Below, piece after piece: positions 23,440 to 48,566 of a DNA stretch of 64,000 nucleotides. The notes beneath the pieces were generated by a model, which ran no database searches, was not told the DNA's origin, and saw nothing but the letters and a program-made list of their open reading frames with translations. The stretch lies in assembly GCF_011045215.1 (NCBI RefSeq), contig NZ_CP049201.1; one strand, 5' to 3'. The stretch comes from Escherichia coli. GTDB lineage: Bacteria; Pseudomonadota; Gammaproteobacteria; Enterobacterales; Enterobacteriaceae. Within the stretch, counting starts at the first letter, position 1. Every line of letters begins with the position of its first letter. Both the position numbers and the translations under genes were made by a program.

Positions 23440-24151
23440 GGACCCGACTACATGATTTACCCGTTAACTTAATACGGCTCACGCCGGAACCCCTTCGGAA
23501 AAATCCTTTCTGCTTCAGCGAGTGAGTGCTGTGGGCACTCAGCGGCGCTGCAAGAGGGATTAAACGTTGGGTTTTCATCTGACGGGTAAAAATAATCTAC
23601 ATATATCTGTCGTCGGGGGCGTGAGCCGGTGCGTAGCACTCTCTCAGAAAAATTCCTGAAGGGGTTTTATCTGAAATCTGGAAACTACCTGGCTTTTGAA
23701 AAAAGGAAGTGGTAATGCAATCGATCGGACTCAACATTGCAACAGCGTAAGCTGTTTCCAGTATTAAAAGAATAAATAGTTGTCATTTTAAAATAAAATA
23801 TTTTCAATTTTGTATTGATTTAAATTTTAAAGCTGATAGTACTTAATTATAAAAACAAAAAAGGAGAGGGTTATGAGTAATATTTTTGTTTCTTCTCAGG
23901 AAGAAAAGTTTATATTTGTTGTTGATAAATATATAACACAGCATCGCGACAGTGTTAATAACAATATTTTTTACAGAAAACTTTATGTGCTTTTCGCTGG
24001 ATACCATCTGAAGTATTTTTATTCACGGGCGCAATATCGCAATTCGTGTTATTGCGTATTCCGCTCTATTCGATCACGGATTGGCATCGAAGTTCGATCA
24101 GCGATTCGCATCCATTCGATCAACCGGGAACTTAACTTTTTCTACCGCTTT

Positions 24152-24907
24152 TTAACTCGTTTTTTCGCTGCTTTCCACTGTCGGGGGATTTTTCCTCAGG
24201 GACTCTCCCTGAAGGACCACTCTGTGTGAGTTATGTACCAGTCTGTCCAGGATGGCATCTGCTGTTGTTGGGTTCTCCATCAGACCATGCCATTTATCTA
24301 CCGGGAACTGGCTTACCACTATCGTGCTGCTTTGTCCGTAACGATCCTCTGTGATCTCCAGAAGGTCATTACACTGGGCGTTACTTAACTGTTCCAGCCC
24401 CAGATCGTCCAGGATTAGAACCTGTATTTTTTGCAACTGTTTCAGATATTTCAGCCAACTGCCATCAACACGTCCCTGAGCCAACTGTTCCAGTAATCGC
24501 CCGGTTCTACAGTACCGGACGCTGTATTTCTGTCGACATGCCTGTTCGCCCAGCGCATTGGCTATCCAGCTCTTACCGCATCCTGTCGGACCGGTTATCA
24601 GTAGGTTTTTCCTGTGGATTATGTAGTGGCCGTTCAGCAGTTCCCTCATCTGTTCAGCCCGCAGACCTCTTGAGGCCGGATAACGCAGCCCTTCCGGTGT
24701 TGCCTGATATTTCAGGCAGGCATTTTTTCTCAACCGTGCCACACGACTGTTTTCTCTGCTCAGAAGCTCGTCATCAACCAGCAGTGTCAGCCTTTCCTCG
24801 AACGACAGTTCGTCGTAAGTCTGAGGCGTTTCCCGTTGCCGTATCAGGCTCCCGGCCATCGCCGGGAGTTTCAGTTGGGTCAGTTTGTTTAACAGATTAT
24901 CACTCAT
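24152..24907 (-). CDS. istB: IS21-family helper ATPase IstB
   Basis: ORF 24152-25150; likely start MSDNLLNKL (24907); Walker A GPTGCGKS and typical IstB layout; overlaps the end of istA. Confidence 0.85.
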   Translation of the reverse strand: MSDNLLNKLTQLKLPAMAGSLIRQRETPQTYDELSFEERLTLLVDDELLSRENSRVARLRKNACLKYQATPEGLRYPASRGLRAEQMRELLNGHYIIHRKNLLITGPTGCGKSWIANALGEQACRQKYSVRYCRTGRLLEQLAQGRVDGSWLKYLKQLQKIQVLILDDLGLEQLSNAQCNDLLEITEDRYGQSSTIVVSQFPVDKWHGLMENPTTADAILDRLVHNSHRVVLQGESLRKNPPTVESSEKTS

Positions 24908-24923
24908 ACGGTTGTTCCTTCTG

Positions 24924-26489
24924 TCAGTGGTAGTAGCCAGGACCACGCAGGTTTTCATGCTCTGAAGCATATGCCGGATGTTGTTCGCCCTGGCGGGATA
25001 ACGGAAGCTCAACGTTATCCCGATGATGACGCAGCAGATTGTCGATAAAGCGTCTGTCCGGGGCGTTATAGTGCAGGGCAACGTAACAGGCCTTTTCCAG
25101 CCGTTCCGGGCCGTATTTTTTCTGAAGTGCCAGCAGACCCAGGACTGCACGGTAAGCCAGCTCCGGATGGGGTTTGGCTTTCAGCATGGATTCAACCACC
25201 CGGCCTGTGGACGGACCTGTACGGTTTCCCTGCTCGATAAGGCGTTCCGGTGTCCATGTCCCATGCCGCCGGTGGCGTTCTGGCATGTGAAGCGGATTGG
25301 TTGTGTGTTTATATTCATGTGTGCTGCGCGGATGTTGCGCCACACACTGCCCCTTGTGCCAGAGCTGTACCACCGACTGCCCCACCTTCAGTGACAGACG
25401 CTGACCGACCAGTTCGTGTGGAACGGAGTACCAGTGACGGGCATATTCAACGTGGTAGTCAGGGCCAACCTTCACGGCTTTGTATTCCGTGTATTCATAA
25501 GGCTCCAGAGGCAGCGGAGAGAGTGCTGGTGCATCCAGCATGCGGAAGCGTTCTGCGCGGGTTTGATTACCGTATCCCTTCATTGGTCGGTTATTCATGT
25601 CCGTCAGCAACTCCCGAAGGCGTGCATTCAGCGCCCTGAGCGTGTGGAAGGTTTCATTACGGATGCGGGCAAGAAGCCATCGCTCGACGATGAGGACGCC
25701 GTTTTCTGCTTTTGGTTTATCTTTAGGTTTGCGCGGGCGGGCCGGGATAATAACCGTGCCATAGTGCTCAGCCAGCGCCTGATAACTGTCGTTGATGACA
25801 GGCTCATAGCGATCGGCTTTTTTCACTGCGCTTCTGAGGTTATCGGGGATGAGCAGCTTCGGTACGCCGCCCAGGAAGGTCAGGCAACGGCTGTGGGCAT
25901 TTAACCATGACATCATGTCCTGACCTTCGCACGCTTCAACATAGGTATAGTTGGACGCCCCCATTACAGCCACGAAGATTGCCACGCGGCGTATCTCTCC
26001 GGTGTCCGGATTAATAACAGGGACCGTAGGACCACAGAAGTCGATAAAGAGCTTTTCGCCAGCACGATGCTCCTGTCGCATGGAGAGGCGTCGCGTTTTT
26101 TTCCACTTCCGGTAGCAACGGCAGAAGTGTGAGTATCCCATCGCTTTGTCACCCGCCTGTGCCTTGTATTCCATCCACAACAGTTGGCGCGTCACGCCAG
26201 GTTTTCTCATTTCCGTATCGAAGTACAGCATGTCAGGCATAACAAGCTCTGACGCAGAGGTGTCTTTGGGCGGGAAAATGAGTTTCTCCAGCGTGTCATG
26301 GGATATATCAGCAGGTAATGGCCATGACAGAGAAGAGGCTTTGAAGCGGGCAAGAACCTCAAAAACGGTTGAGGCGCTGATGTGTAACGTCAGTCCGATA
26401 CAACGGTTAGTCAGCTTCTTATCGAACTTGAGCTGAAGGATCTTAAAACAAGTTTCCATAGTGCTCCTGGATTTTCTCTTTTTGGACAT
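24924..26489 (-). CDS. istA: IS21-family transposase IstA
   Basis: ORF 24924-26591; likely start MSKKRKS (26489); N-terminal HTH followed by integrase-like catalytic core; paired with istB. Confidence 0.8.
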   Translation of the reverse strand: MSKKRKSRSTMETCFKILQLKFDKKLTNRCIGLTLHISASTVFEVLARFKASSLSWPLPADISHDTLEKLIFPPKDTSASELVMPDMLYFDTEMRKPGVTRQLLWMEYKAQAGDKAMGYSHFCRCYRKWKKTRRLSMRQEHRAGEKLFIDFCGPTVPVINPDTGEIRRVAIFVAVMGASNYTYVEACEGQDMMSWLNAHSRCLTFLGGVPKLLIPDNLRSAVKKADRYEPVINDSYQALAEHYGTVIIPARPRKPKDKPKAENGVLIVERWLLARIRNETFHTLRALNARLRELLTDMNNRPMKGYGNQTRAERFRMLDAPALSPLPLEPYEYTEYKAVKVGPDYHVEYARHWYSVPHELVGQRLSLKVGQSVVQLWHKGQCVAQHPRSTHEYKHTTNPLHMPERHRRHGTWTPERLIEQGNRTGPSTGRVVESMLKAKPHPELAYRAVLGLLALQKKYGPERLEKACYVALHYNAPDRRFIDNLLRHHRDNVELPLSRQGEQHPAYASEHENLRGPGYYH

Positions 26490-26625
26490 TGACGTCTCCA
26501 CTGGTTTAAACACGGCAATGGAGACTGTGGTGAAAAGAGTTAATTCCCGGAGTGACTGGCGAATTCCAATCAATGATCGGAAGTATGCCAAATCGTGATC
26601 GATTGTGATGCCAACATATCCTTAC

Positions 26626-28100
26626 CCATAAATCCGAGTGATGTTATTCTGTTGATAAATTAACCATAATTTAGAGGAACTATGGAAAACTGGGTTATTA
26701 AGGAGCTGGAATCTCTGAATGTTGGTGATATCAGGCTCGAAAAGCGAATAAAGCACGTTCTCAGTGTGCTTAGCCGTTCACCAAAGGAAAGTATTCCCGT
26801 ATCCTGCCGTACCTGGAGTGAGACAAAAGCTGCTTATCGTTGCTTTTCCAGTGATAAAATTTCAGCCGATAAAATCATGGCTCCCCATAAGAAAAATATC
26901 ATCGAAAGGACTAAACAGTTTAAACGGGCTCTGGTTTTACAGGATACGACTGAACTAAATTATTCTGGTCAAAAAAAGAAACAGGGCGTCGGTCCCAGAC
27001 GACATGAAAATGAGCGAGATTTGTTTATTCACCCTCAATTGGTTATAAGTGATTCAGGTATTTGCTTAGGGGTTTATGATGATTATCAATGGTTCAGAAA
27101 AGAACTCAAAACTCAGAAACAAAGTCGTAAAGAAATAACTAATGATTCACTTCACAGGAAACATATCAGTGAGAAAGAAACAGGACGGTGGATAGAAGGA
27201 TATAAAAAAGCAACAGAACTGGCTAGGTCCTGTCCTGATACCCAGATAATTTCTGTTTCAGACCGTGAAGGTGATATTTACGACCTCTTTGAGAGTGCAG
27301 AAAATGAAAGTGGGATAAAGGCTGACTGGCTCGTAAGAATGAAGAGCATTAACCGGGCTATACTGAATTCATCAGGAAAAAGAGACTCATTACTCCTGAA
27401 TGAAAAAATGATGCAGATTTTGCCACAGCAGATAATTGAGTTTACCCTTCCGGAAGGACGAGGACAACCTTCCCGCAAAGTCCAGCAGGAGCTACGCTTA
27501 GCAAGGTTGACGCTACATCCACCCACCGGTCGAAGAGGAAAGTTACGTTGTTCTCCGGTAACGGTAACTGTATTACTTGCAAAGGAAATAAATGCTCCAG
27601 AAAGTGTCCAGCCATTAGTATGGTGGCTAATGAGTAGTGTACCTCCAGAAAAGCTGACGGAACCCGCACAGCTTATTCAATGGTATTTATTACGCTGGCA
27701 GATTGAAGTTTTCTTTAAGGTATTAAAAAGCGGATGTCAGGTTGAGAAATTACAACTTGAGACATTTGAACGCACAAGGAACTGTCTGGCCTTATACCTT
27801 ATAATCTCATGGAGAATACTTTATCTTAGCTCATTGTATAAAATGGTTCCGGAGGAACCCTGTGATTTAATTTTCGAAAAGAAAGAATATGAGTATCTCT
27901 GGATATTGGTAGAGAATACGCCTCCACCTGAAAACATACCGAATATAAGAACGGCGGTTTTAATGCTTGCAAGATTAGGAGGATATCTGGCAAGAAAAAA
28001 TGATTCGCCTCCAGGCCCTAAGACTATATGGTCAGGATTAACACAATTAATGCTGTCAATTAATGCCATAGAAATAGCCCAGAAAACTTGTGGGTAAGGG
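26626..28100 (+). mobile_element. IS4-family insertion sequence nested in the IS21-family left end
   Basis: Single transposase ORF flanked by imperfect terminal inverted repeats (CCTTACCCATAA... / ...TTGTGGGTAAGG); both flanks carry IS21-type repeat motifs; boundaries approximate. Confidence 0.6.
26682..28097 (+). CDS. IS4-family DDE transposase
   Basis: 471-aa ORF containing the IS4 Y-x2-R-x3-E-x6-K signature (YLLRWQIEVFFKVLK). Confidence 0.85.
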   Translation: MENWVIKELESLNVGDIRLEKRIKHVLSVLSRSPKESIPVSCRTWSETKAAYRCFSSDKISADKIMAPHKKNIIERTKQFKRALVLQDTTELNYSGQKKKQGVGPRRHENERDLFIHPQLVISDSGICLGVYDDYQWFRKELKTQKQSRKEITNDSLHRKHISEKETGRWIEGYKKATELARSCPDTQIISVSDREGDIYDLFESAENESGIKADWLVRMKSINRAILNSSGKRDSLLLNEKMMQILPQQIIEFTLPEGRGQPSRKVQQELRLARLTLHPPTGRRGKLRCSPVTVTVLLAKEINAPESVQPLVWWLMSSVPPEKLTEPAQLIQWYLLRWQIEVFFKVLKSGCQVEKLQLETFERTRNCLALYLIISWRILYLSSLYKMVPEEPCDLIFEKKEYEYLWILVENTPPPENIPNIRTAVLMLARLGGYLARKNDSPPGPKTIWSGLTQLMLSINAIEIAQKTCG

Positions 28101-28195
28101 TATGTGATGCCAAACTGTGATCGGAGATGGATGCCAAATCATGATCGATTCGAATGCCAAACTGCGATCGATTCAGATGCCATTTTGCAGTTATC
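28100..28195. repeat. Displaced IS21-family subterminal repeat block (3-4 copies of ATGCCAAA..TGATCGATT)
   Basis: Read directly: GTGATGCCAAACTGTGATCGG, GGATGCCAAATCATGATCGATT, CGAATGCCAAACTGCGATCGATT, CAGATGCCA. Confidence 0.6.
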
Positions 28196-28576
28196 ACGTT
28201 GATAATATCATGCAGATGTTTATGGGTGTCGTTTCTACCCTGAAGGCCCCTCTGCTCAGGCAACTCGCAAACAGTGACACATTACTGCATTGCCTGAATT
28301 CGCTCGTGAATTATATTTCAGGCAATCTGGATGAAGCAGAGCACATTTATGCTGATTTACTGGCACAGTATGAAAAGAAACGCATTGCACGTTCTCTGGC
28401 TTATACACCACCAGGATCCGTGGTCAGGAAAAGGCTGTGAGGCAGCGGATACGTACTGGACAGGGGATGGCAGAGTGACATAAAAGCAGTCGTTTCCCGC
28501 AAGACATTACCGGGCATTAAAAAGGCAGGAGCCACCGGTCTGGTGTCCTGCCTGGCGGGATTGTTTTACTGTGGTC

Positions 28577-28897
28577 TTACTTATCAATGACCTGCCAGCC
28601 ATCATCCGTTTTGATCAGCCTGACAGCCGCTGTGCGTTTTTCGTTATCGACAACAGCTGTTACATTGCATTTATAGCTTTTATCCGATAGTTTTTCGCAG
28701 TCATGCTTTTTGACAGATTTTAATTCCCGCAGTGCGTCTTTCGGGACATCTTTACCTGCTATGGATTTAACGATGGCATTCGTCTGCTCCATGACCTTAT
28801 TCATCGCAGTGTAAATATCCTGCTCAGACGGTTCACCGGTACAGCCACTCAGCAAAAAAATGGACGCAATGAGTGTGGTAAATGCATATGTTTTCAT
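28577..28897 (-). CDS. Small lipoprotein (106 aa)
   Basis: N-terminal signal peptide with lipobox LLSGC (MKTYAFTTLIASIFLLSGCTG). Confidence 0.6.
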   Translation of the reverse strand: MKTYAFTTLIASIFLLSGCTGEPSEQDIYTAMNKVMEQTNAIVKSIAGKDVPKDALRELKSVKKHDCEKLSDKSYKCNVTAVVDNEKRTAAVRLIKTDDGWQVIDK

Positions 28898-28923
28898 AAA
28901 ATAATCCCAGACTGTAGAGTACG

Positions 28924-29322
28924 TTATTGAATAAGGCCGGTTTTCATCTTGCTGTTGTTTTCAGAGATCGTCCACTTACTGACCGTTTCGCCTTTAAATT
29001 CGATTTCCAGCGTTTTGGCCTGCGTCTGTGAACCGCCTGTCAGCAACCCGACCACTGGAATGAATGTGGTGGCATCAAACTGATTGTTATCCATCGAATA
29101 AGTCCATTCTTCATTGCCACTATCAAGTGTAGTTTTGGTTTCGGGCTCACCTAATGCGGTAATGATTTCTGATTTCGTTGTTTTATTTTTTATAATTTTC
29201 GACTGCAGACTTTGTGCTGTTTCTTTTTTTAGATGCTGGTTGCCTGATGTTGAACAACCAGAAATAAGGAAAGCAGAAATAAAAAACACAGAAATCATGA
29301 ATCTGTTCATAAGTTCTCTCAT
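28924..29322 (-). CDS. Small lipoprotein (132 aa)
   Basis: Signal peptide with lipobox LISGC (MISVFFISAFLISGCSTSG); alternative start MNRFMIS possible. Confidence 0.6.
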   Translation of the reverse strand: MRELMNRFMISVFFISAFLISGCSTSGNQHLKKETAQSLQSKIIKNKTTKSEIITALGEPETKTTLDSGNEEWTYSMDNNQFDATTFIPVVGLLTGGSQTQAKTLEIEFKGETVSKWTISENNSKMKTGLIQ

Positions 29323-29359
29323 ATTAATTTTTTATGTTTGCGGTGGTATGAAATTAATA

Positions 29360-29635
29360 TCACCGTATAAAAACAACTCTGTCTGCATATTTCTTTTTAA
29401 TAATGCAGATAAGAATAATGACGCTGGCAAAAAACGTAATGACTGAGACAGGAGTGCTGCCGGTCAATGAAAATACTAACCAGGCGAGAGCTAATGCCAC
29501 GAATTGAAACAGGAATGCCACACTGAGCGGACTCTCACCGTAGGCGACTTTTGCATGGCAGCCTTTGCAAATCCGCACGCCGTGCGGGCTTTGTGTAAAG
29601 CAGAAGGGGCAGCTAATCGTTTTATTATCCATCAT
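29360..29635 (-). CDS. Zinc-ribbon membrane protein (91 aa)
   Basis: N-terminal CPFC...CKGC four-cysteine motif followed by two hydrophobic segments. Confidence 0.5.
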   Translation of the reverse strand: MMDNKTISCPFCFTQSPHGVRICKGCHAKVAYGESPLSVAFLFQFVALALAWLVFSLTGSTPVSVITFFASVIILICIIKKKYADRVVFIR

Positions 29636-29820
29636 GACTCCGTGGCCTGATTTAAGGTGATGTATTTTTGAACATTTTCGATGAATGATCCGCTTTAGTA
29701 AAATTGCTTGTACCGATCGATGGATCTCTGTTGATAGGTTATAACTATCATAACAAGATTATCGATCTATATAAACGATCAATATTTTATTGACTATCAC
29801 TAAAATATGGATTAGTTAAC

Positions 29821-31050
29821 TTATGGTGCAGGATAGGGGTTATTTTTAACTAATTGTTCTTTAATGGGATTTGTTGTCATGGAATGACAGGGTGTCAGAA
29901 GATGCAGGTGCAGGATTTGGTGGAAAGGATGTGCAGTGGCATGTAACAGAGACATGCCCCTGCGCCTGAGAAGTGCCACAATATGGCCGAGCAATACAAA
30001 CCACGAATGCAGACGACGCTGGCGGGGTATCTGACGAGCTGTATTGTGCAGTTTGCTCCTGAGTTGAATGACACCCACTGTTTCCTGTTGTCTTTCCAGA
30101 CGAATTTTTTCTTCAAGCTGAAGGATTTTCTCCAGAATCGTTTCCCGGTTTGCAGCCTGTTCTTCAGGCTCGCATGATGGCACTGGCACTGGCACTGGCA
30201 CTGGCACTGGCACTGGCACTGGCACTGGCACAGTCTGCTGTTGCTCTTTTTTCAGTAAAGCCAGGTGCTCTGGTGTAAAATCAATCTGTGTTTGCAGAGA
30301 AGACCAGCCATACTTTTTTCCAAGCTGAGACGCTTTAAAGGCAATGCCCTGGTACTGAAATGAAAAGCCGTTCATTTTTCCCGTTGAGGCGATATTAGGT
30401 TTACAGTTCACGCCTTCCTTTTCCAGCATAGTGATAAAAGTCAGCAAATCAGGGCGGCCGGTTAACGCATTATCAATCAGGCTCTGCAGAGTGGACCTGG
30501 GGCAGGGAGTTGTCGTTCTTTCAGCCATCATCAGCTCGTTGCGGGAAGGCTTTCTTTTCTCCTGACTATGACTACTGATTGCAGATGTGGTTTGAGTGAG
30601 TTTGTGGACTTTCTCCAGCTCGCTGATAATCCGGGTACTGATAAGATTTTCATTTTTCCCAAGGTACAGCTTCCCACCGACCATGTTAATTCTGTTAGCT
30701 ATTATATGGATATGCTGCCCGTCCGAATCATCGTGCATGATATAGCAGCGAAGATGGGTTTCAGTGAATCCCATCCGGGTCATATAATCGTCAGCGAATG
30801 CCGCCCATTGTCTGACTGACAGTGTTTCTCCCTTTGGCAGGCGAAGCGAATTATGCCAGACAGGTTTGGCGACACCGGGGCGCAGTAGTCTTGTGCCTTC
30901 AAATTCACTGATAAGTTCAGCAGCAGTGCTTCCCGTCATGTTGCCACCGATAATATAAGGCGTGATTTTGTGGTGAGATCCTGACTTAAGGCTATAGAGA
31001 ACAACACCTGCGAACTGTTTACCCCGCTTTATTTTCTGCATACCTTTCAT
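29821..31050 (-). CDS. Mobilization relaxase (MobA/MobL-like) with internal (VP)n linker; C-terminal tail of doubtful authenticity
   Basis: Three-histidine relaxase-type motif HDDSDGQHIHIIANR; start overlaps the mobC-like stop (ATGA at 31047-31050); low-complexity tail after the VP repeat. Confidence 0.65.
   Translation of the reverse strand: MKGMQKIKRGKQFAGVVLYSLKSGSHHKITPYIIGGNMTGSTAAELISEFEGTRLLRPGVAKPVWHNSLRLPKGETLSVRQWAAFADDYMTRMGFTETHLRCYIMHDDSDGQHIHIIANRINMVGGKLYLGKNENLISTRIISELEKVHKLTQTTSAISSHSQEKRKPSRNELMMAERTTTPCPRSTLQSLIDNALTGRPDLLTFITMLEKEGVNCKPNIASTGKMNGFSFQYQGIAFKASQLGKKYGWSSLQTQIDFTPEHLALLKKEQQQTVPVPVPVPVPVPVPVPVPSCEPEEQAANRETILEKILQLEEKIRLERQQETVGVIQLRSKLHNTARQIPRQRRLHSWFVLLGHIVALLRRRGMSLLHATAHPFHQILHLHLLTPCHSMTTNPIKEQLVKNNPYPAP
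30178..30231. repeat. Perfect hexanucleotide tandem repeat (TGGCAC)x9 inside the relaxase gene
   Basis: Read directly; encodes a run of 8-9 Val-Pro dipeptides on the minus strand. Confidence 0.95.
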
Positions 31051-31451
31051 TGAGTTGGCTCCAGAAAGGTTGATGGAATAAGGTGATCCCTGAGAGTTTT
31101 GATTTGTCTGCGCAGGGCGAAGAGTTCTGTACGGGTCAGTTCGCTGTCAGGGCTTTTGCTGTCGAGATGATTCAGCAGGCGGTTTAAATGCTGTGAAAGG
31201 TTGCCGAGTTTAATCCATGCTTCACGATTGATTTCAGGTAATACCGGTGGGAGTTTGTTGAGGGATGCCATTCTTAGCCATTCCCCTTTTTTATAAGGGC
31301 CTCTTTTACTATCGAGAATAGATAATTCTTCTTCGTTTAACCGAACGCTGACGCAGTGAGTTCGAACTTCATTAGGTGAATATTTTGCTGTATGGAATTT
31401 ACCTCTTCTTGAGCGTCTTGATAGATCTTCTTTACTTTCATTTTTATGCAT
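31047..31451 (-). CDS. MobC-like relaxosome accessory protein
   Basis: 134-aa basic protein immediately upstream of and overlapping the relaxase gene; typical mobC-mobA arrangement. Confidence 0.5.
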   Translation of the reverse strand: MHKNESKEDLSRRSRRGKFHTAKYSPNEVRTHCVSVRLNEEELSILDSKRGPYKKGEWLRMASLNKLPPVLPEINREAWIKLGNLSQHLNRLLNHLDSKSPDSELTRTELFALRRQIKTLRDHLIPSTFLEPTQ

Positions 31452-31628
31452 ATCTAACCTTTTTTAAAATGTGTTCATGATCTACAGTTAGCGCATTGGT
31501 AAAATAAGTCAAGGCAGTGTCGAAATTTATAAATAAGATAGGTGGAGCAGATTGCTAATTAGGTAATCTGCTCTGGGTAAAAATAGGGTTCATATTAAAT
31601 TCATTATGACAGTGAGGAGGGGCGGAGG

Positions 31629-32573
31629 TTACAATCTACGTTTTACTGGCATTAAAGAGATTGTTTGTTTCATAATTTCGCTAAGTTTCTTTTTCTCATG
31701 TTCTGCTATATATTTACAAATCTCATCATGTCGAATATGCTGTTCCAGTTGTTTTTTATCCATTTTGATGTCATTGCGGATAAACCATTTAATGGTTTCA
31801 ATGTCCCCGCGTAAATCATAACCTCGCAGTACAATATGGCGAAAATGTGTGTTGCTGATATCTGTCTTCTTCTTTAGTTCACTGAAGAAAGAGCTCATTT
31901 CATTTTCATTGGCACTTAGATAAACCTGGCAGTTATCAGAGATAGTAAAGTTAAGGTTTTTCTTCTGAAGCAAATCCATTATCTGCAGACTTTCGCTGTT
32001 GAGGTAGTTGAAAATTACTGGACTGCTATCCTTCATACTAATATGACGAATGAGCATTTTGGCTTTGAAATCGCCTAATGAATAGCAAATTTCAAAAATA
32101 CCGTGACCCTGGTTATCTCTGTGGTTTATATCGCAACCGGCCTGTACCATCAAATCAAAGATAGAGTGATTTTTTACGTAAAAAAGTATTGTTCTTCCGC
32201 ATTTATCCACATTGTTGACATTAATTCCAGCATTGATCAGGGTTTTGCAACAGGATATATTATCAGCTAACGAGCATAAACAGGTTTGGCCGAGACCATT
32301 TTTATGGTGTATATCTACGCCGGAATCAATCAATTTTTTCAGTATGTGAGGATTTCGCTGGTTAAACAAAACATTGTGACCATAGTTGTCAGCATGGTTA
32401 AAATCTATTCCTGCTTTAACCAGAGTGTCAATCATTCTTGGGTTTTTACAGTAAAACAGTATATTTCTTCCAAACGAATCCAGTGTATTAATATCGGAGC
32501 CTGCATTAATGCAAGCCTGAATGTCTTTTGGAGTTTTACAAGAGAGTAATGTATTTATTGCGTTGTTATTCAT
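31629..32573 (-). CDS. Ankyrin-repeat protein (paralog 2)
   Basis: 314-aa ORF with ankyrin-like repeats (GSDINTLDSFGRNILFY..., GIDFNHADNYGHNVLF...) and the shared C-terminal region; 16 bp downstream of ORF 32589-33029. Confidence 0.7.
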   Translation of the reverse strand: MNNNAINTLLSCKTPKDIQACINAGSDINTLDSFGRNILFYCKNPRMIDTLVKAGIDFNHADNYGHNVLFNQRNPHILKKLIDSGVDIHHKNGLGQTCLCSLADNISCCKTLINAGINVNNVDKCGRTILFYVKNHSIFDLMVQAGCDINHRDNQGHGIFEICYSLGDFKAKMLIRHISMKDSSPVIFNYLNSESLQIMDLLQKKNLNFTISDNCQVYLSANENEMSSFFSELKKKTDISNTHFRHIVLRGYDLRGDIETIKWFIRNDIKMDKKQLEQHIRHDEICKYIAEHEKKKLSEIMKQTISLMPVKRRL

Positions 32574-32588
32574 AATTTTTCTCCTCTG

Positions 32589-33029
32589 TTAAGCGACTAA
32601 TCTGATATAGTTGTCATGGTTGGTTTTATATTCCTTTATTTTTTTAATGTCTTCGTAAATTCGAGCGAGTGAAAACCATGAGATCTCTTTCAACATGTTT
32701 TTGTTGCTTACATACAAAATGTTACCACCGCGAAATGAAAAAGCATTATGGAATGTACTTTCATTCGTCGTTTTGAGAAATCGAATGAAATTTTTTATTG
32801 TCTCTTTTTTGTTCATGTTATAAGAGGTGAATGTATAGATAGAGAATACGGTTAAAATATTTCTCTTCGAGACCATATGTCTTGAGAAATAATCGAAATA
32901 AAATCTTTGCTCCTGAGTGTCACTTTTGCAGAAAAAAGAAAATTGTGGATTATATAATCTATAAAGATCTGCGTTCTTTTTTGTTTTGGCGAGATAGTTA
33001 GTCAGGCTTGGATATTTTGTTTTATTCAT
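32589..33029 (-). CDS. Hypothetical protein (146 aa), probably co-transcribed with ankyrin paralog 2
   Basis: ORF ends 16 bp upstream of the ankyrin gene start on the same strand; no recognised domain. Confidence 0.45.
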   Translation of the reverse strand: MNKTKYPSLTNYLAKTKKNADLYRLYNPQFSFFCKSDTQEQRFYFDYFSRHMVSKRNILTVFSIYTFTSYNMNKKETIKNFIRFLKTTNESTFHNAFSFRGGNILYVSNKNMLKEISWFSLARIYEDIKKIKEYKTNHDNYIRLVA

Positions 33030-40050: not shown

Positions 40051-41594
40051 AAAACCACCTTCGCCAGATTATCAACGATGGCTCTGTTCAGACGCGCCTC
40101 TTCTTCCAGTTGCGCTTCAAACTCAGCTTTAAGAGCCGTAAAGCGTTCTTTAAAGTCGAAATCGTCTTCTTCATCAGCAAGACCAACATAACGGCCAGGT
40201 GTCAGCACATAATCGAGTTTAGCAACTTCAGCAATGTCTACTGACGCACAGAAACCAGCGACGTCTTCGTAGTCGCCACCTTTGTTACGCCAGTTATGGT
40301 AGGTATCGGCTATGGTTTTAATATCGTAGTCAGACAGGACTTTGGTTCGACGATTAATTAAATGGCCTAAATTCCGGGCATCAATAAACAGAATTTCTTT
40401 ACTGCGATCACGATATTGGCTGCTATTTTCACGATCACGACGCATAAACCATAACGCCGCAGGGATCTGGGTGTTCAGGAACAGTTTTGCAGGTAAATTT
40501 ACGATACAGTCAATCACATTGGCATCTTTTACCAGTGCGGCACGGATATCACCTTCACCAGAACTTTTAGATGTTAAAGCCCCTTTTGCCAGTACAACAC
40601 CAGCCTGACCTTTTGGCGACAGGTGATACAGAAAATGCTGCATCCAGGCAAAGTTAGCATTCCCGGTAGGTGGGATACCGTATTGCCAACGGGCATCGCC
40701 ACGAAGCTGCTCACCGGACCAGTCAGACACGTTAAACGGTGGATTGGCAATGATAAAATCAGATTTTAGATCTTTGTGGGCATCGTTAAGGAATGAGCCT
40801 TCACTGTTCCAGCGGACGTGTTCTGAATTGATACCCCGGATAGCCAGGTTCATTTTTGCCAGACGCCAGGTGGTCTGGTTGGATTCCTGACCGTAAATCG
40901 AAATATCGTCAATATTTCCCTGATGCGCTTCAACAAATTTTTCTGACTGAACGAACATACCACCGGAACCGCAGCAAGGGTCAAAGACTCGGCCTTTATA
41001 GGGTTCCAGCATGTTAACCAGCAGGCTTACGATGGATTTTGGCGTATAGAACTGACCGCCCTGTTTGCCTTCTGCCAGTGCAAATTCACCAAGGAAGTAT
41101 TCGAATACGTGGCCTAATACATCAGCAGAACGCGCTTTGGCATCTCCCAGTGCAATGTTGCCAATCAGATCTATCAGTTCACCCAGCACAGTTGCGTCGA
41201 GGTTCTGGCGAGCGTAGACTTTCGGCAGCACACCTTTTAGCTGTGGGTTACCCGCTTCGATAAGCTCCATAGCATCATCAACCAGCTTACCGATTTCGGG
41301 TAGCTTTGCCTTAGATATTAGATAGTTCCAGCGTGCAAGCTCAGGGACAAAGAAAATGTTGTAAGCGGTGTACTCGTCTCTATCTTCCGGGTCAGCGCCT
41401 GCGAACTCGCCTTCACCAGCCTTCAGCAACTCATAATGAGATTCAAAAGAATCAGAAATATACTTAAGGAAAATCAGGCCCAGCACGACATGCTTGTACT
41501 CGGCTGCATCAATGTTCTTACGTAGCTTGTCAGCCGCTTTCCACAGGATGACCTCTAACGGGTCTGTTTTGATTTCTTTAGGTTTTCTGGCCAT
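40047..41594 (-). CDS. hsdM: Type I R-M N6-adenine DNA methyltransferase HsdM
   Basis: 515-aa ORF with AdoMet-binding motif [10 protein letters not shown] and catalytic NPPF. Confidence 0.9.
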
Positions 41595-41754
41595 TAGCGT
41601 AACTTTGTGAAGGTGGAAGATGGCCCTATTTTGCCTTAAAGTTCCGCTTGTTACGAGCTTATACAGCGATTAATTATTATCTGGTTTTAGTGTGTTCGTG
41701 TAGCTCAGCAAGTGCAATGACTCATGGAGTAAATGCTTTGTAGCGGGATTGTAG

Positions 41755-42070
41755 ATGTCAGGTCATTGCCGTCAATGGAGCCAGTGTCATTGGCATAATT
41801 GCTGCACAGCCGATGCCACGCGCACATTCGCTAGTTCACTGTGGTTCATCGTGTGTACTACACCAGTACGCAGTCCGGGAAGTAACGGCATGGCAGAATC
41901 GTTTGTAAAGACGTTCAAGCGGGATTATGTGTACGTAGATGATCTGCTGGATGCAGTCTAAATGATGGAAACAATGGCAGAATAGATAGAGGATTATAAT
42001 AATCTGCATCCACACAAGGGGTTGAACATGAAATCGCCACGCGAATATCGTGATGCCATATTAGCAGTTA
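41755..42070 (+). pseudogene. IS3-family (IS2-group-like) transposase OrfB C-terminal remnant with internal stops
   Basis: ...NGMAESFVKTFKRDYVYV...IEDYNNLHPHKGLNMKSPREYR... resembles the IS2 InsD C-terminus (NGIAESFVKTIKRDYI...HYNEWHPHSALGYRSPREY). Confidence 0.55.
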
Positions 42071-42515
42071 ATTAGCCGTGTCCGTTTTAGCAGGGACAAC
42101 TCCAGTATTCAAAAAAGCTTTCTTAGTGCATATGCATGAGGTGAATAGATGTACAGGCTATGACAAACCATAGTTGTAATTTTTAATGTTTAAAATTCTC
42201 CGTTACAGTAGGACACTCCTTGTACATTAAATTCCATCTAAGGTTGAATTTTTAATTTAATAAGGTCGCAATCTAAAATGATGTGTATGGGGTTATTTGT
42301 AAGATGATTTTTTATGTTTGATAGTGGTGATTAAGGGAGCGGGTAATGTTTGTCTATTCAAAAATATAGAGATTCAAGGTTGGTAGCAGTTTGGCTTCTT
42401 TTCTAACCGAAGGGCAGAAAAGCAAGGGGAACTCGAAGAAGCAAGCGCAGCGGCTTCGCAGAGTTAGCCCTTGCTTCTCTTATAATTGGCATTATTCATT
42501 CAAGAACAATAGGAT

Positions 42516-42535
42516 CTTCGCTTGTACAAGCGAAG
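42516..42535. repeat. 20-bp perfect palindrome CTTCGCTTGTACAAGCGAAG
   Basis: Read directly; lies in a 1.1-kb AT-rich intergenic region upstream of the ParB-like/recombinase module, near a second inverted repeat (42414-42479). Confidence 0.8.
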
Positions 42536-43189
42536 CTATAATAAAAACAATCAATTAATTATTTTAAAAGTATTAAACAAGAACCTATTGACATTCATAA
42601 AATACAAGTTATTTATAATGTATGCCATAAATAAAAAGTTTTATGTCATATGTATCCTGCACTATGTGCAGTTAATGTACCACTTGTCCCATAGATGGGA
42701 ATATTGGAAAGGTTACTTTGTTTTGAAGTAGCCTTTCGTCCTTCAATATTAACGATTACTTATTGCTATTACCAAGTCCAGTCGAATCGAAGAACATCTT
42801 TTATCTGAAACGACTCCTAATACCCGGTTAAAGCCACAATAACTCTCGCATACGTAGACCAAAGAAAAATTATGATATTAAATATGTGATTTTTTTTAGT
42901 GTTAAGTTGAATAATTAAATACTGGAGAGTTTTCTGTGCACTACCAATTGCTGGTTCATCTGTTCTGCCGCTGATGTTTCTGACGAATCTCCCGGTGACA
43001 CAGAACTGTCCCTCTCTACCAGCCTTTATTCGACTCAATGTCCGGCTGCTGATACGCAGTTATCCCTTCGTATCAATGACTGACACTTAAACGTAATGCT
43101 TTGGTTGCTGGCGTATCTGACAGCTTCTTCGGCGTGAAGGTCGTTGTGTAAGTATACTTCTTGGTTTATTTAGGCTATATAAAACATGA

Positions 43190-44086
43190 CTATGACTTGC
43201 TGTTTTCAGTAAGAGTCTTATCATCCAAAGAATTTATTCTAGAAATTCTTTTTAACTCATTAAGATAATCAACCTCGTTTTCTAAGAACCAATGAAGAAC
43301 TTTAGAATTGCCAAGTAATTTATTAATATATGACTGGATTATAACGAATTTCAACATATCTGAACCATACTCGGTTTGAAGCTTTTTCGTTTCTTCCGAA
43401 GTTGTTGCCATTTCTTGTTCCAGACGAAGTATGGTTTTTTTTATATCCTTTTTATAGGGAGTGTTTTTCCCTTTATTTACTATCATCGATGCCGGTGTTG
43501 CATCCAAGATGCTCATTGCAAATTTTTTACTATAATTATCAAAATTAATCATTGTACCGACTGCTTCAATTTGGCGAATTGGCTTCATTTTCCTCAAAAC
43601 GTCAAATGTAGCCTTAGGTATAGGTTTATCAGAAAGTTTCGCAATTACACTTGGATCTATGCCGTTCATCACATTCGCTTTATCTTTTATGGCATCAACA
43701 GATATGCCCAAAGCAGCACTAAGTTTTTCAATTGATACTTTTGCCAGAGACTTAATTATCATTCTATGTTCTTCAACTACATTTATATGATTCACTTGTT
43801 TGTTAGGAGTGAAAGCATCATCTATGCTCGAAAGTATACATGGAGCTTTTTCTATACCTAAGTCTTTTAAAGCCTCAACCCTTAAATGGCCATCAAGTAT
43901 CTTAGTGACATCTTTATCTTTGTCATAGAATACTATTATTGGTTCAATAATACCTAAGCTTTCGATAGAGGTAACTATTTGATGATATTTATGGCTTCGC
44001 TTTACGTTTTCTAATAATTCCTTAGATGGAATTAACTTATTAGTTTCCAGGTAAATAAAATTATCGCCAAAACGTATCTGAATCAT
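43190..44086 (-). CDS. ParB-N-terminal-domain (ParB/Srx-fold) protein, paralog B
   Basis: 298-aa AT-rich ORF; ILDGHLRVEALKDLG resembles the ParB arginine-patch box (GERRxRA); start overlaps upstream stop (ATGA). Confidence 0.65.
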   Translation of the reverse strand: MIQIRFGDNFIYLETNKLIPSKELLENVKRSHKYHQIVTSIESLGIIEPIIVFYDKDKDVTKILDGHLRVEALKDLGIEKAPCILSSIDDAFTPNKQVNHINVVEEHRMIIKSLAKVSIEKLSAALGISVDAIKDKANVMNGIDPSVIAKLSDKPIPKATFDVLRKMKPIRQIEAVGTMINFDNYSKKFAMSILDATPASMIVNKGKNTPYKKDIKKTILRLEQEMATTSEETKKLQTEYGSDMLKFVIIQSYINKLLGNSKVLHWFLENEVDYLNELKRISRINSLDDKTLTENSKS

Positions 44087-48203: not shown

Positions 48204-48566
48204 TGGTGGAGCTGGCGGGAGTTGAACCCGCGTCCGAAATTCCTACATCCTCGGTACTACATGCTTAGTCAGTCTTTACATTCGCTTGCCAGCTGCGGAC
48301 GGACACGCCACTAACAAACTAGCCTGATTAAGTTTTAACGCTTCAACCCCAGGCAGGGCTTCCACGCGATCTCTTTTGGGTTTGACCTCTCTTGATCCCC
48401 GTCCTAAGAGCGGAGGCTAGGGAGAGAGGGCTCTAAGCAGGTTATTAAGCTGCTAAAGCGTAGTTTTCGTCGTTTGCGACTATTTTTTGCGGCTTTTTAC
48501 GAGGCCAACCGCCCCTCGGCATGCACCTTGGGTTTCGCAAATCCCGTCGAATCCAGAATCAGCCCC
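48204..48566 (-). ncRNA. ssrA: tmRNA (SsrA)
   Basis: Reverse complement reads GGGGCTGATTCTGGATTCGACGGGATTTGCGAAACCCAAGGTGCATGCCGAGGGGCGGTTGGCCTCGTAAAAAGCCGCAAAAAATAGTCGCAAACGACGAAAACTACGCTTTAGCAGCTTAA...GCTCCACCA, i.e. E. coli tmRNA including the ANDENYALAA tag-encoding segment; 363 nt. Confidence 0.97.

Follow-up and report, generated by a model that had tools for sequence, protein, structure and literature searches.

A conserved three-gene operon in a family of mobilizable islands

The window analysed in this study, a stretch of 64,000 nucleotides from Escherichia coli (contig NZ_CP049201.1), represents a chromosomal island at ssrA (tmRNA gene at 48204..48566) that carries three consecutive minus-strand open reading frames (ORFs), here named genes A, B and C, all of which are located inside 28577..29635. 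We tentatively read A-B-C as an accessory envelope operon that is part of the backbone shared by a family of integrative mobilizable islands and that may act as a two-layer exclusion module, a possibility that we rate clearly below even. Such islands encode a tyrosine integrase (P4-type or other), AlpA, DUF6387, a NikA-like protein and a relaxase, and they carry variable defence cargo. The three genes are as follows.

29360..29635, minus strand: gene A, predicted inner-membrane protein of 90/91 amino acids (KKKYADRVVFIR), from the ORF, hydropathy and charge distribution
28924..29322 (probable start 29310), minus strand: gene B, predicted lipoprotein of 128/132 amino acids (FIPVVGLLTGGS), from the ORF and lipobox
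28577..28897, minus strand: gene C, predicted lipoprotein of 106 amino acids, from the ORF, lipobox and structural model

An earlier reading of the sequence (the original prediction) had described a 91-residue protein with a four-cysteine zinc ribbon and two transmembrane helices, followed on the same strand by two small lipoproteins with clear lipoboxes, and had placed them between a cluster of insertion sequences (IS) and a mobilization module. The coordinates, the arrangement and the description of the three ORFs were correct. The features ascribed to A were recovered from the ORF, the cysteine alignment and the hydropathy profile, the lipoboxes read ISGC in B and LSGC in C, and the trio indeed lies between the IS insertion (~24051..28189) and the relaxase and NikA-like genes, which are directly upstream.

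A scan of species-representative genomes seeded with A identified 22 loci, and look-ups in E. coli and Salmonella added more. With tblastn, the order NikA-like gene, relaxase gene, intergenic block, A, B, C and then a gene for a 141-residue protein on the opposite strand was observed in about 30 loci, which represent at least 12 genera (Escherichia, Salmonella, Citrobacter, Klebsiella-related, Phytobacter, Pseudocitrobacter, Kluyvera, Superficieibacter, Enterobacter, Pluralibacter, Photorhabdus and Dickeya). Gene A was present in every locus with this type of relaxase, at times unannotated. B and C were both missing from two otherwise very similar islands (L005 and L014), and one Dickeya contig contained A and C only. 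Accordingly, the idea of a conserved operon tied to mobilization genes stands, the tie being real and itself conserved, and the idea of an obligate three-part unit does not. The original prediction had also staked itself on the genes recurring together and on their not being fragments of a larger gene, and across the loci they did recur as a unit and no such fragments were found. The integration sites of the islands vary (ssrA, mutS-ygbA), as does their cargo, examples of which are Kiwa, Abi_2 with an OLD-like TOPRIM protein, type I restriction-modification (RM) genes, SIR2, an ATP-dependent nuclease with a UvrD helicase, and DUF4209. Because the gene order is constant while the sites and the cargo on the nikA side differ, we consider the trio to be part of the backbone rather than of the cargo.

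The three genes differed in how their sequences vary between loci. B was uniformly conserved, with 69-96% identity. For A, three identity classes were distinguished (~80-100%, 54% and 44%), and for C two (~70-94% and 35-41%). The allele classes of A and C were shuffled relative to the relaxase clades, the divergence in A being concentrated in the transmembrane hairpin, and no co-variation of A alleles with either C alleles or relaxase clades was evident.

The three gene products

A, B and C are real genes under purifying selection. The median pairwise ratios of nonsynonymous to synonymous substitution rates (dN/dS) were 0.16 for A, 0.12 for B and 0.15 for C, against a median of 0.19 for the neighbouring mobilization genes. 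Since these ratios are low and full-length homologs of the same size occur in many genera, the genes are neither chance ORFs nor fragments. Their families are catalogued, yet functionally blank. No known exclusion, immunity, defence or toxin family was found for them in Pfam, NCBIfam, PHROGs, PADLOC or PDB: known families for entry, surface or superinfection exclusion (TraT, TraS, TrbK, Eex, Cor) gave no match at E <= 0.1 in Pfam/NCBIfam, the defence models of PADLOC-DB v2 gave none at E <= 0.01, and profiles of the three proteins run against PDB sequences detected no relative of a solved structure. The literature that we found names SEN1982 and SEN1984, two related Salmonella genes discussed below, only as predicted lipoproteins, with a resemblance to BamE by Phyre2. 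In the annotation of a near-identical E. coli locus (99.8% identity across the 1.4-kb query; NZ_OZ546938 and others match), RefSeq lists A as hypothetical (90 residues), B as 'SEN1984 family lipoprotein' (128 residues) and C as hypothetical (106 residues).

Gene A has two candidate starts, of which the second ATG (29632) has the better GGAG spacing and is the one chosen by RefSeq, giving 90 residues. The protein is predicted to consist of an N-terminal four-cysteine zinc ribbon, a YGE motif, a hairpin of two transmembrane helices and a basic C-terminal tail. The cysteines (C9/C12 and C23/C26), in the pattern CPFC-N10-CKGC (CxxC-N10-CxxC), and the YG motif were invariant in 18 homologs, and the cysteine pattern is retained in the wider family. 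Conservation is found in the putative zinc ribbon and in the C-terminal tail, and it is the hairpin that diverges. From the hydrophobic segments (~34-60 and 58-81) and the Lys/Arg residues at both termini, A is predicted to form an N-in/C-in hairpin with the zinc ribbon and the basic tail on the cytoplasmic side. No Pfam or NCBIfam family scored above its cut-off for A, the score for DZR (PF12773)/DZR_2 being 17.2 against a cut-off of 27.3. When 1.84 billion protein representatives were searched exhaustively with a profile, only 133 clusters of A-family proteins emerged, nearly all of 89-120 residues and built on one plan (CPxC..VCxGCxA..YG, two transmembrane helices and an RVVFxR tail). A-family genes were found in only two IMG/VR contigs, and a search of phages returned none except one short zinc-knuckle match.

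Both B and C have the signature of Lgt/LspA substrates, with a positive n-region, a hydrophobic h-region and a lipobox of the form [LVI][ASTVI][GAS]C. By the +2 rule (no Asp at +2), the two proteins are predicted to be exported, lipidated and sorted to the outer membrane. In B, for which RefSeq places the start at M5 and thus obtains 128 instead of 132 residues, the N-terminus MNRF..FLISGC contains the lipobox cysteine Cys19 (128-residue form) followed by Ser at +2; in C, the N-terminus MKTY..FLLSGC contains Cys19 followed by Thr at +2. Both lipobox cysteines were invariant in the alignments.

The mean column identity of B was 82%, and the protein carries a conserved hydrophobic Gly-rich loop (FIPVVGLLTGGS). 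Its similarity to the Pfam BamE family (PF04355; residues 45-117, E 0.016) reached 15.4 bits, below the gathering cut-off of 23.2 bits, so that B was not assigned to this family. In the AlphaFold model of B (pLDDT 68.7), Foldseek matched BamE chains at a TMt of 0.57, with E-values of 0.2-0.5 that are not significant. WP_001079016.1, the RefSeq 'SEN1984 family lipoprotein', is 100% identical to B by tblastn, and NCBIfam release 20 returned no SEN1984-family model for B. The protein matches phrog_3135, a family of unknown function, with an E-value of 1.3e-22. Full-length homologs of B with 37-39% identity are morons of temperate phages, where they are located directly after cI (PhiR26_1), between cI and N (S107), among the tail genes (a Klebsiella phage) or between the head and tape-measure genes (an Alteromonas phage). 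The cI-adjacent slot is the one in which lambda carries rexAB. B homologs also occur on Burkholderia conjugative plasmids, and some annotations label them bamE.

C contains two further invariant cysteines (C67 and C77). Its structural model, which is confident (pLDDT 82.7), shows one helix packed on a curved four-stranded sheet, a cystatin/NTF2-like cone. The structural neighbours of the model, checked with VirB8/NTF2-like conjugation proteins in mind, were only generic ones. The NCBI name for C, 'cell wall-binding protein', received no support from any test made here, and no C homolog was found in phages. A match of C to the PHROG of the superinfection-exclusion protein Cor (E 1.6e-4) was confined to residues 7-40, the signal peptide, and was rejected; this match and an NCBIfam match to TraV were driven by the signal peptide or lay far under the cut-offs.

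A-family genes next to lipoprotein genes in other elements

The consistent partner of A across different types of elements is a lipoprotein and not the relaxase. In the serU island of E. coli CFT073, which is of the ROD21/EARL type and has a MobQ relaxase, a 91-residue homolog of A (37% identity, E 3e-17) sits 10 nucleotides downstream of a gene for a 176-residue lipoprotein of the SEN1982 type, several genes beyond the relaxase and on the opposite strand. The same pair was found in Cedecea and on plasmid pF17EC0245-1, in the latter case beside a MobA/MobL gene. On 31-33 kb plasmids of Klebsiella, Citrobacter and Enterobacter, a gene for a 99-residue lipoprotein is separated by 5 nucleotides from an A homolog; these plasmids also carry pilin genes, a DotA/TraY-family gene and H-NS. 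Among remote metagenomic members of the A family, a lipoprotein gene was the immediate neighbour in two of three contexts. Published data fit the same arrangement, both for ROD21, by its coordinates (SEN1981A, 264 bp, then SEN1982), and for ICEKp258.2, by ORF sizes and spacing (ORF16, 91 residues, then ORF17, 183 residues).

Beyond the signal peptide, the partner lipoproteins show no relationship to B or C, nor to one another. Homology of B or C to the SEN1982-type lipoprotein or to the 99-residue plasmid lipoprotein was considered and rejected, as the similarity covered signal peptides only. By a rough count, an A-family gene is paired with a lipoprotein gene in five of eight independent contexts, which, on that rough count, is far above the expectation from a lipoprotein content of a few percent per genome. 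The A-like genes of Pasteurellaceae are chromosomal orphans without a lipoprotein or mobilization neighbour. Those of Haemophilus and Actinobacillus are longer (113-120 residues) and are single genes (L026 6909..7259 and L027 9980..10342); the Haemophilus gene adjoins the end of a cluster that resembles a filamentous prophage (Zot-like and secretin-like ORFs, judged by eye).

A conserved intergenic element upstream of gene A

In an alignment of 18 loci, conservation within the module is highest in the region between the relaxase stop codon and gene A. This region contains the following features.

29636..29820, minus strand: conserved intergenic element of 185 nucleotides, from the relaxase stop to A (alignment of 18 loci)
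29693..29721: invariant 29-mer ATCGATCGGTACAAGCAATTTTACTAAAG, exact in 26 loci
29715..29767: imperfect 53-nucleotide inverted repeat GATCGAT..GATAG-N7-CTATC..ATCGATC (hairpin z ~-2), which abuts the 29-mer
29775..29747, minus strand: promoter-like sequence TTTATA-17-TATGAT with an extended TG (promoter scan), overlapped by the inverted repeat

The 29-mer occurs once in the window, with 0 occurrences expected by chance, and the 26 loci that contain it exactly have relaxases only 46-58% identical to that of the window. Five GATC sites are present in the intergenic element, three of them invariant, a density in the top 0.3% of windows. No Rfam family matched the element. A hairpin followed by an invariant sequence beside a relaxase gene is the usual anatomy of an origin of transfer (oriT). 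Because the element matches this anatomy, it is a candidate oriT; because the promoter is flanked by GATC sites, it is equally a candidate for a Dam-sensitive promoter of the operon.

The intergenic block was present in 344 of 5426 complete E. coli genomes (~6%), always on the chromosome, and on plasmids it was found in none except one mis-binned contig. This contig (L002; OX345050.1, 3582 bp) was also the sole match in a search for near-identical plasmid DNA. It was deposited as a linear Salmonella 'plasmid' and is a fragment of the same island type, containing the gene for a 146-residue protein, an ankyrin gene, the NikA-like gene, the relaxase gene, the intergenic block and the 5' part of A; the record probably stems from the chromosome and was assigned wrongly.

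Two other sites were considered and rejected. Upstream of nikA, an inverted repeat (31545..31573) is followed by CACCTATCTTA, which resembles the RP4 nick region; since the repeat differs from lineage to lineage and T-runs take the place of this sequence elsewhere among the 18 loci, we regard the site as the terminator of the upstream ankyrin gene. The sequence ATCCTGC at the 3' end of the relaxase gene was not conserved in the alignment of 18 loci.

Neighbouring genes and the composition of the island

The genes and signals that border the trio in the window are listed below.

31047..31451, minus strand: NikA-like accessory protein (E 7.9e-4; 20 against 27 bits, below the cut-off)
29821..31050, minus strand: relaxase with a MobA/VirD2 nuclease domain (PF03432, E 1.4e-22, above its cut-off)
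28524..28560, no strand assigned: GC-rich hairpin with T-runs on both strands, between the stops of C and the convergent 141-residue gene, terminator-like on both strands
28190..28440, plus strand: 3' part of the conserved 141-residue gene, converging on C (intact in L001; junctions from tblastn/blastn)
~23873..24050: 5' part of the conserved 141-residue gene, split off by the IS cluster

The context of the trio is therefore a MOBP-type module, that is, a relaxase with a MobA/VirD2 nuclease domain and a NikA-type accessory protein. Because the relaxase missed every equivalog cut-off of the NCBIfam MOBP-type models, we left its subfamily unassigned; its profile found nothing meaningful among PDB sequences. 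The relaxase carries a (Pro-Val)9 repeat (window 30150..30210). In the matching locus L001, the near-identical relaxase gene has 10 additional codons (1260 versus 1230 nucleotides), so that the number of Pro-Val repeats may differ among strains. In the annotation of L001 we found an integrase, a serine recombinase, two ParB-family genes, a type I restriction system, ankyrin-repeat proteins, the NikA-like gene, the relaxase, the trio, the convergent 141-residue gene, a helix-turn-helix protein, AlpA, DUF6387 and a SIR2 protein.

The IS cluster (~24051..28189) is an IS21-like element that itself carries an IS4-like insertion. It interrupts the 141-residue gene and leaves the trio and the hairpin after C intact. 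The A-B-C operon probably ends at this hairpin, which would act as a terminator in both directions. The 141-residue gene encodes a cytoplasmic product and adjoins C in nearly all loci, or A where the lipoprotein genes are absent; it is a neighbour of the trio and lies outside it.

On the other side of the module, genes for a 314-residue ankyrin-repeat protein and a 146-residue protein (31629..33029) are located upstream of nikA on the same strand, and they are retained in many related loci. The ankyrin protein gave a weak match to the PADLOC model PDC-M72A (E 1.5e-10), and ankyrin genes were also found on the 31-33 kb plasmids that bear an A homolog. The slot beside nikA is a variable hotspot for defence-type cargo (L004, L031-L036, L003 and L005), its contents being KwaA/KwaB, Abi_2 with an OLD-like TOPRIM protein, an ATP-dependent nuclease with a UvrD helicase, a TacA-family antitoxin with an acetyltransferase, HxsD with a radical SAM protein, DUF4209 or a Sll1717-type ATPase. 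Some related islands contain a block of three genes, encoding two tyrosine recombinases and a DNA-binding protein. Finally, a non-coding block at 42390..42893, in which no convincing ORF was seen, shares ~84% identity with the right end of the mutS-ygbA islands (L003 13147..13622, L005 and L014). In the window the block has an internal position, with the type I RM genes on one side and two ParB genes on the other, which suggests that the island is composite; the block itself is possibly an att-proximal arm, a partition site or an oriT. An Rfam scan of 28400..31700 and 41500..43300 gave no match.

Possible functions of the operon

If A-B-C is an exclusion module, it would make the island-bearing cell a poor recipient of incoming DNA at two layers. 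The outer-membrane lipoproteins B and C would hinder contact or penetration by a mating apparatus or phage, and the inner-membrane protein A would act on the cytoplasmic face, at DNA entry; the lipoprotein partner would be exchangeable and the A-type protein constant. We infer this function from the position of the genes and from their likeness to TraS/TraT, TrbK, Cor and Llp. The original prediction had proposed entry exclusion, immunity or a small membrane-acting defence or toxin module from the position beside mobilization genes, and this was borne out in part: a role in envelope exclusion, or as a barrier, is compatible with the predicted sorting of the lipoproteins to the outer membrane, with the presence of B homologs at prophage immunity and moron sites, and with the recurrent pairing of A with a lipoprotein. 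The shuffling of A and C allele classes relative to the relaxase clades was counted in its favour, but recombination alone can yield such a pattern. Several further observations weigh against an exclusion function. None of the proteins has sequence similarity or significant structural similarity to any known exclusion protein. A is predicted to have almost no periplasmic exposure, and it would thus have no obvious contact with periplasmic parts of a donor or with the outer-membrane lipoproteins. B and C are dispensable in some islands and the A-like genes of Pasteurellaceae are orphans, so that the three proteins may act independently. Moreover, the exclusion system of a mobilizable element would have to target the transfer apparatus of a helper.

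A broader proposal, which we put forward as speculation, is that mobilizable elements possess a so far unrecognised envelope system of two components, the A-family protein and an exchangeable lipoprotein encoded next to it. Its carriers would be the present islands, the ROD21/EARL islands, with ICEKp258.2 of Klebsiella pneumoniae sequence type 258 (ST258) among them, and small enterobacterial plasmids. Such a system would control DNA entry, either by conjugation or phage exclusion or through establishment on the recipient side, and the upstream hairpin and 29-mer would be a new oriT or a Dam-controlled switch that times expression of the operon.

Rather unlikely in our view is that the genes have no role in DNA traffic and encode envelope factors for host fitness or virulence, that is, cargo of the lysogenic-conversion type that changes the cell surface (serum or complement resistance, robustness, outer-membrane protein assembly). 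Lambda Bor, Iss and TraT are surface-altering factors of this type. The B homologs at classical moron positions of temperate phages and the weakly BamE-like fold of B fit this explanation. SEN1984 is likewise BamE-like by Phyre2 (PMC10655114), and SEN1982 of ROD21, beside the A homolog, scored in a transposon screen for mouse organ colonisation (PMC10655114, PMC6968874). What speaks against it is that the operon belongs to the conserved transfer backbone and not to the variable cargo, that the most conserved DNA of the module precedes the operon, and that the operon is found in environmental and plant-associated genera as well as in pathogens; a cytoplasm-facing zinc-ribbon protein would also be left unexplained.

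We consider it quite improbable that A is a mobilization accessory that tethers the relaxosome, or the incoming relaxase-DNA, to the membrane or the coupling protein, with B and C as unrelated downstream morons. A does accompany this relaxase in every locus, directly after its gene and with a possible oriT immediately upstream, it stays where B and C are absent, and its zinc ribbon and basic tail are predicted to face the cytoplasm. However, in the EARL islands and on the 31-33 kb plasmids the A homolog is located by a lipoprotein gene and not by the relaxase gene, the A-like genes of Pasteurellaceae have no mobilization neighbour, and the A alleles fail to track the relaxase clades.

Very improbable is a defence or toxin module of the sensor-effector kind, in which a periplasmic lipoprotein would detect a phage or pilus attacking the envelope and A would respond by forming oligomers that depolarise the inner membrane (abortive infection), or in which A would be a membrane toxin restrained by another factor. 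The combination of a small protein with two transmembrane helices and a variable lipoprotein fits a sensor of exchangeable specificity, and the islands are rich in defence cargo. Yet PADLOC gave no match, the gene is located in the backbone and not among the cargo, A is predicted to reside in one membrane and its outer-membrane-sorted partners in the other, and A-like genes are apparently harmless orphans in Pasteurellaceae. Lastly, the notion that the ORFs are spurious, or remnants of a larger gene broken near the IS cluster, was prompted by the double IS insertion that borders the region and is refuted by the comparative data, namely identical lengths and order in dozens of IS-free loci, dN/dS values of 0.12-0.16, and an IS insertion that breaks the neighbouring 141-residue gene and not the trio.

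Relevance of the module

Besides the ~6% of complete E. coli genomes that contain the intergenic block, many other Enterobacterales carry the module. Part of it recurs in ROD21 and, judging only by published ORF sizes and spacing, in ICEKp258.2 of the epidemic K. pneumoniae ST258 clone, and the corresponding genes of both elements are still designated 'hypothetical'. The islands move anti-phage defence and restriction systems between strains. Should the operon govern the receipt of DNA, it would be a new determinant of the spread of these islands and of their helper plasmids, and A-B-C would represent a new kind of exclusion protein; a true exclusion system of this composition would be built from protein families unrelated to the known ones. 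As a transfer origin for these islands, the invariant upstream element is a concrete candidate.

Comparison with known systems

The closest counterparts are the ROD21/EARL elements, as represented by SEN1981A-SEN1982-SEN1983-SEN1984 of Salmonella Enteritidis, the serU island of CFT073 and ICEKp258.2, which are also mobilizable islands with an integrase, an AlpA-type regulator, DUF6387 and a relaxase. The CFT073 counterpart of SEN1981A (91 residues) is the A homolog described above, a lipoprotein gene abuts the A-type gene, and RefSeq files a protein identical to B under the name of SEN1984. However, the relaxase of ROD21/EARL is of the MobQ/MobA-MobL type, unlike the PF03432-type relaxase with a NikA-like partner in the present island, and the neighbouring lipoprotein (SEN1982 type, 176 residues) is unrelated to B and C. 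The order is also different, the lipoprotein gene preceding the A-type gene; in CFT073 the latter is separated from the relaxase gene by several others and is encoded on the other strand. The invariant 29-mer is absent.

On the F plasmid, the adjacent genes traS and traT encode an exclusion pair, TraS being located in the inner membrane and TraT being an outer-membrane lipoprotein. The trio resembles this pair in having adjacent, co-oriented genes within a DNA-transfer module, in the predicted combination of a small inner-membrane protein with outer-membrane lipoproteins, and in the diversity of the alleles. No homology between them was detected in the Pfam/NCBIfam scans, the sole sequence comparison made. 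TraS lacks the cytoplasmic zinc ribbon that A is predicted to carry, and the trio includes two small lipoproteins (106 and 128 residues) in place of the single one of ~25 kDa in F. Furthermore, the present island is only mobilizable and, unlike F, does not encode a mating apparatus that could serve for recognition.

TrbK (RP4), Eex (pKM101/R388), Cor (phi80/N15) and Llp (T5) are small exclusion lipoproteins of plasmids and phages. B is comparable to them as a small lipoprotein of mobile elements that is found at moron or transfer-module positions. The sole similarity detected was that of the C signal peptide to the Cor PHROG, and in contrast to these proteins B and C have no target receptor assigned. 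BamE (SmpA/OmlA, PF04355), finally, is a lipoprotein of similar size to B, which reaches a TM score of ~0.57 relative to it. Unlike BamE, B contains an additional hydrophobic loop, which is conserved, and its gene is found on mobile elements in hosts that have a bamE of their own. Its score is below the Pfam cut-off, the Foldseek E-values are not significant, and nothing places B in the BAM complex.

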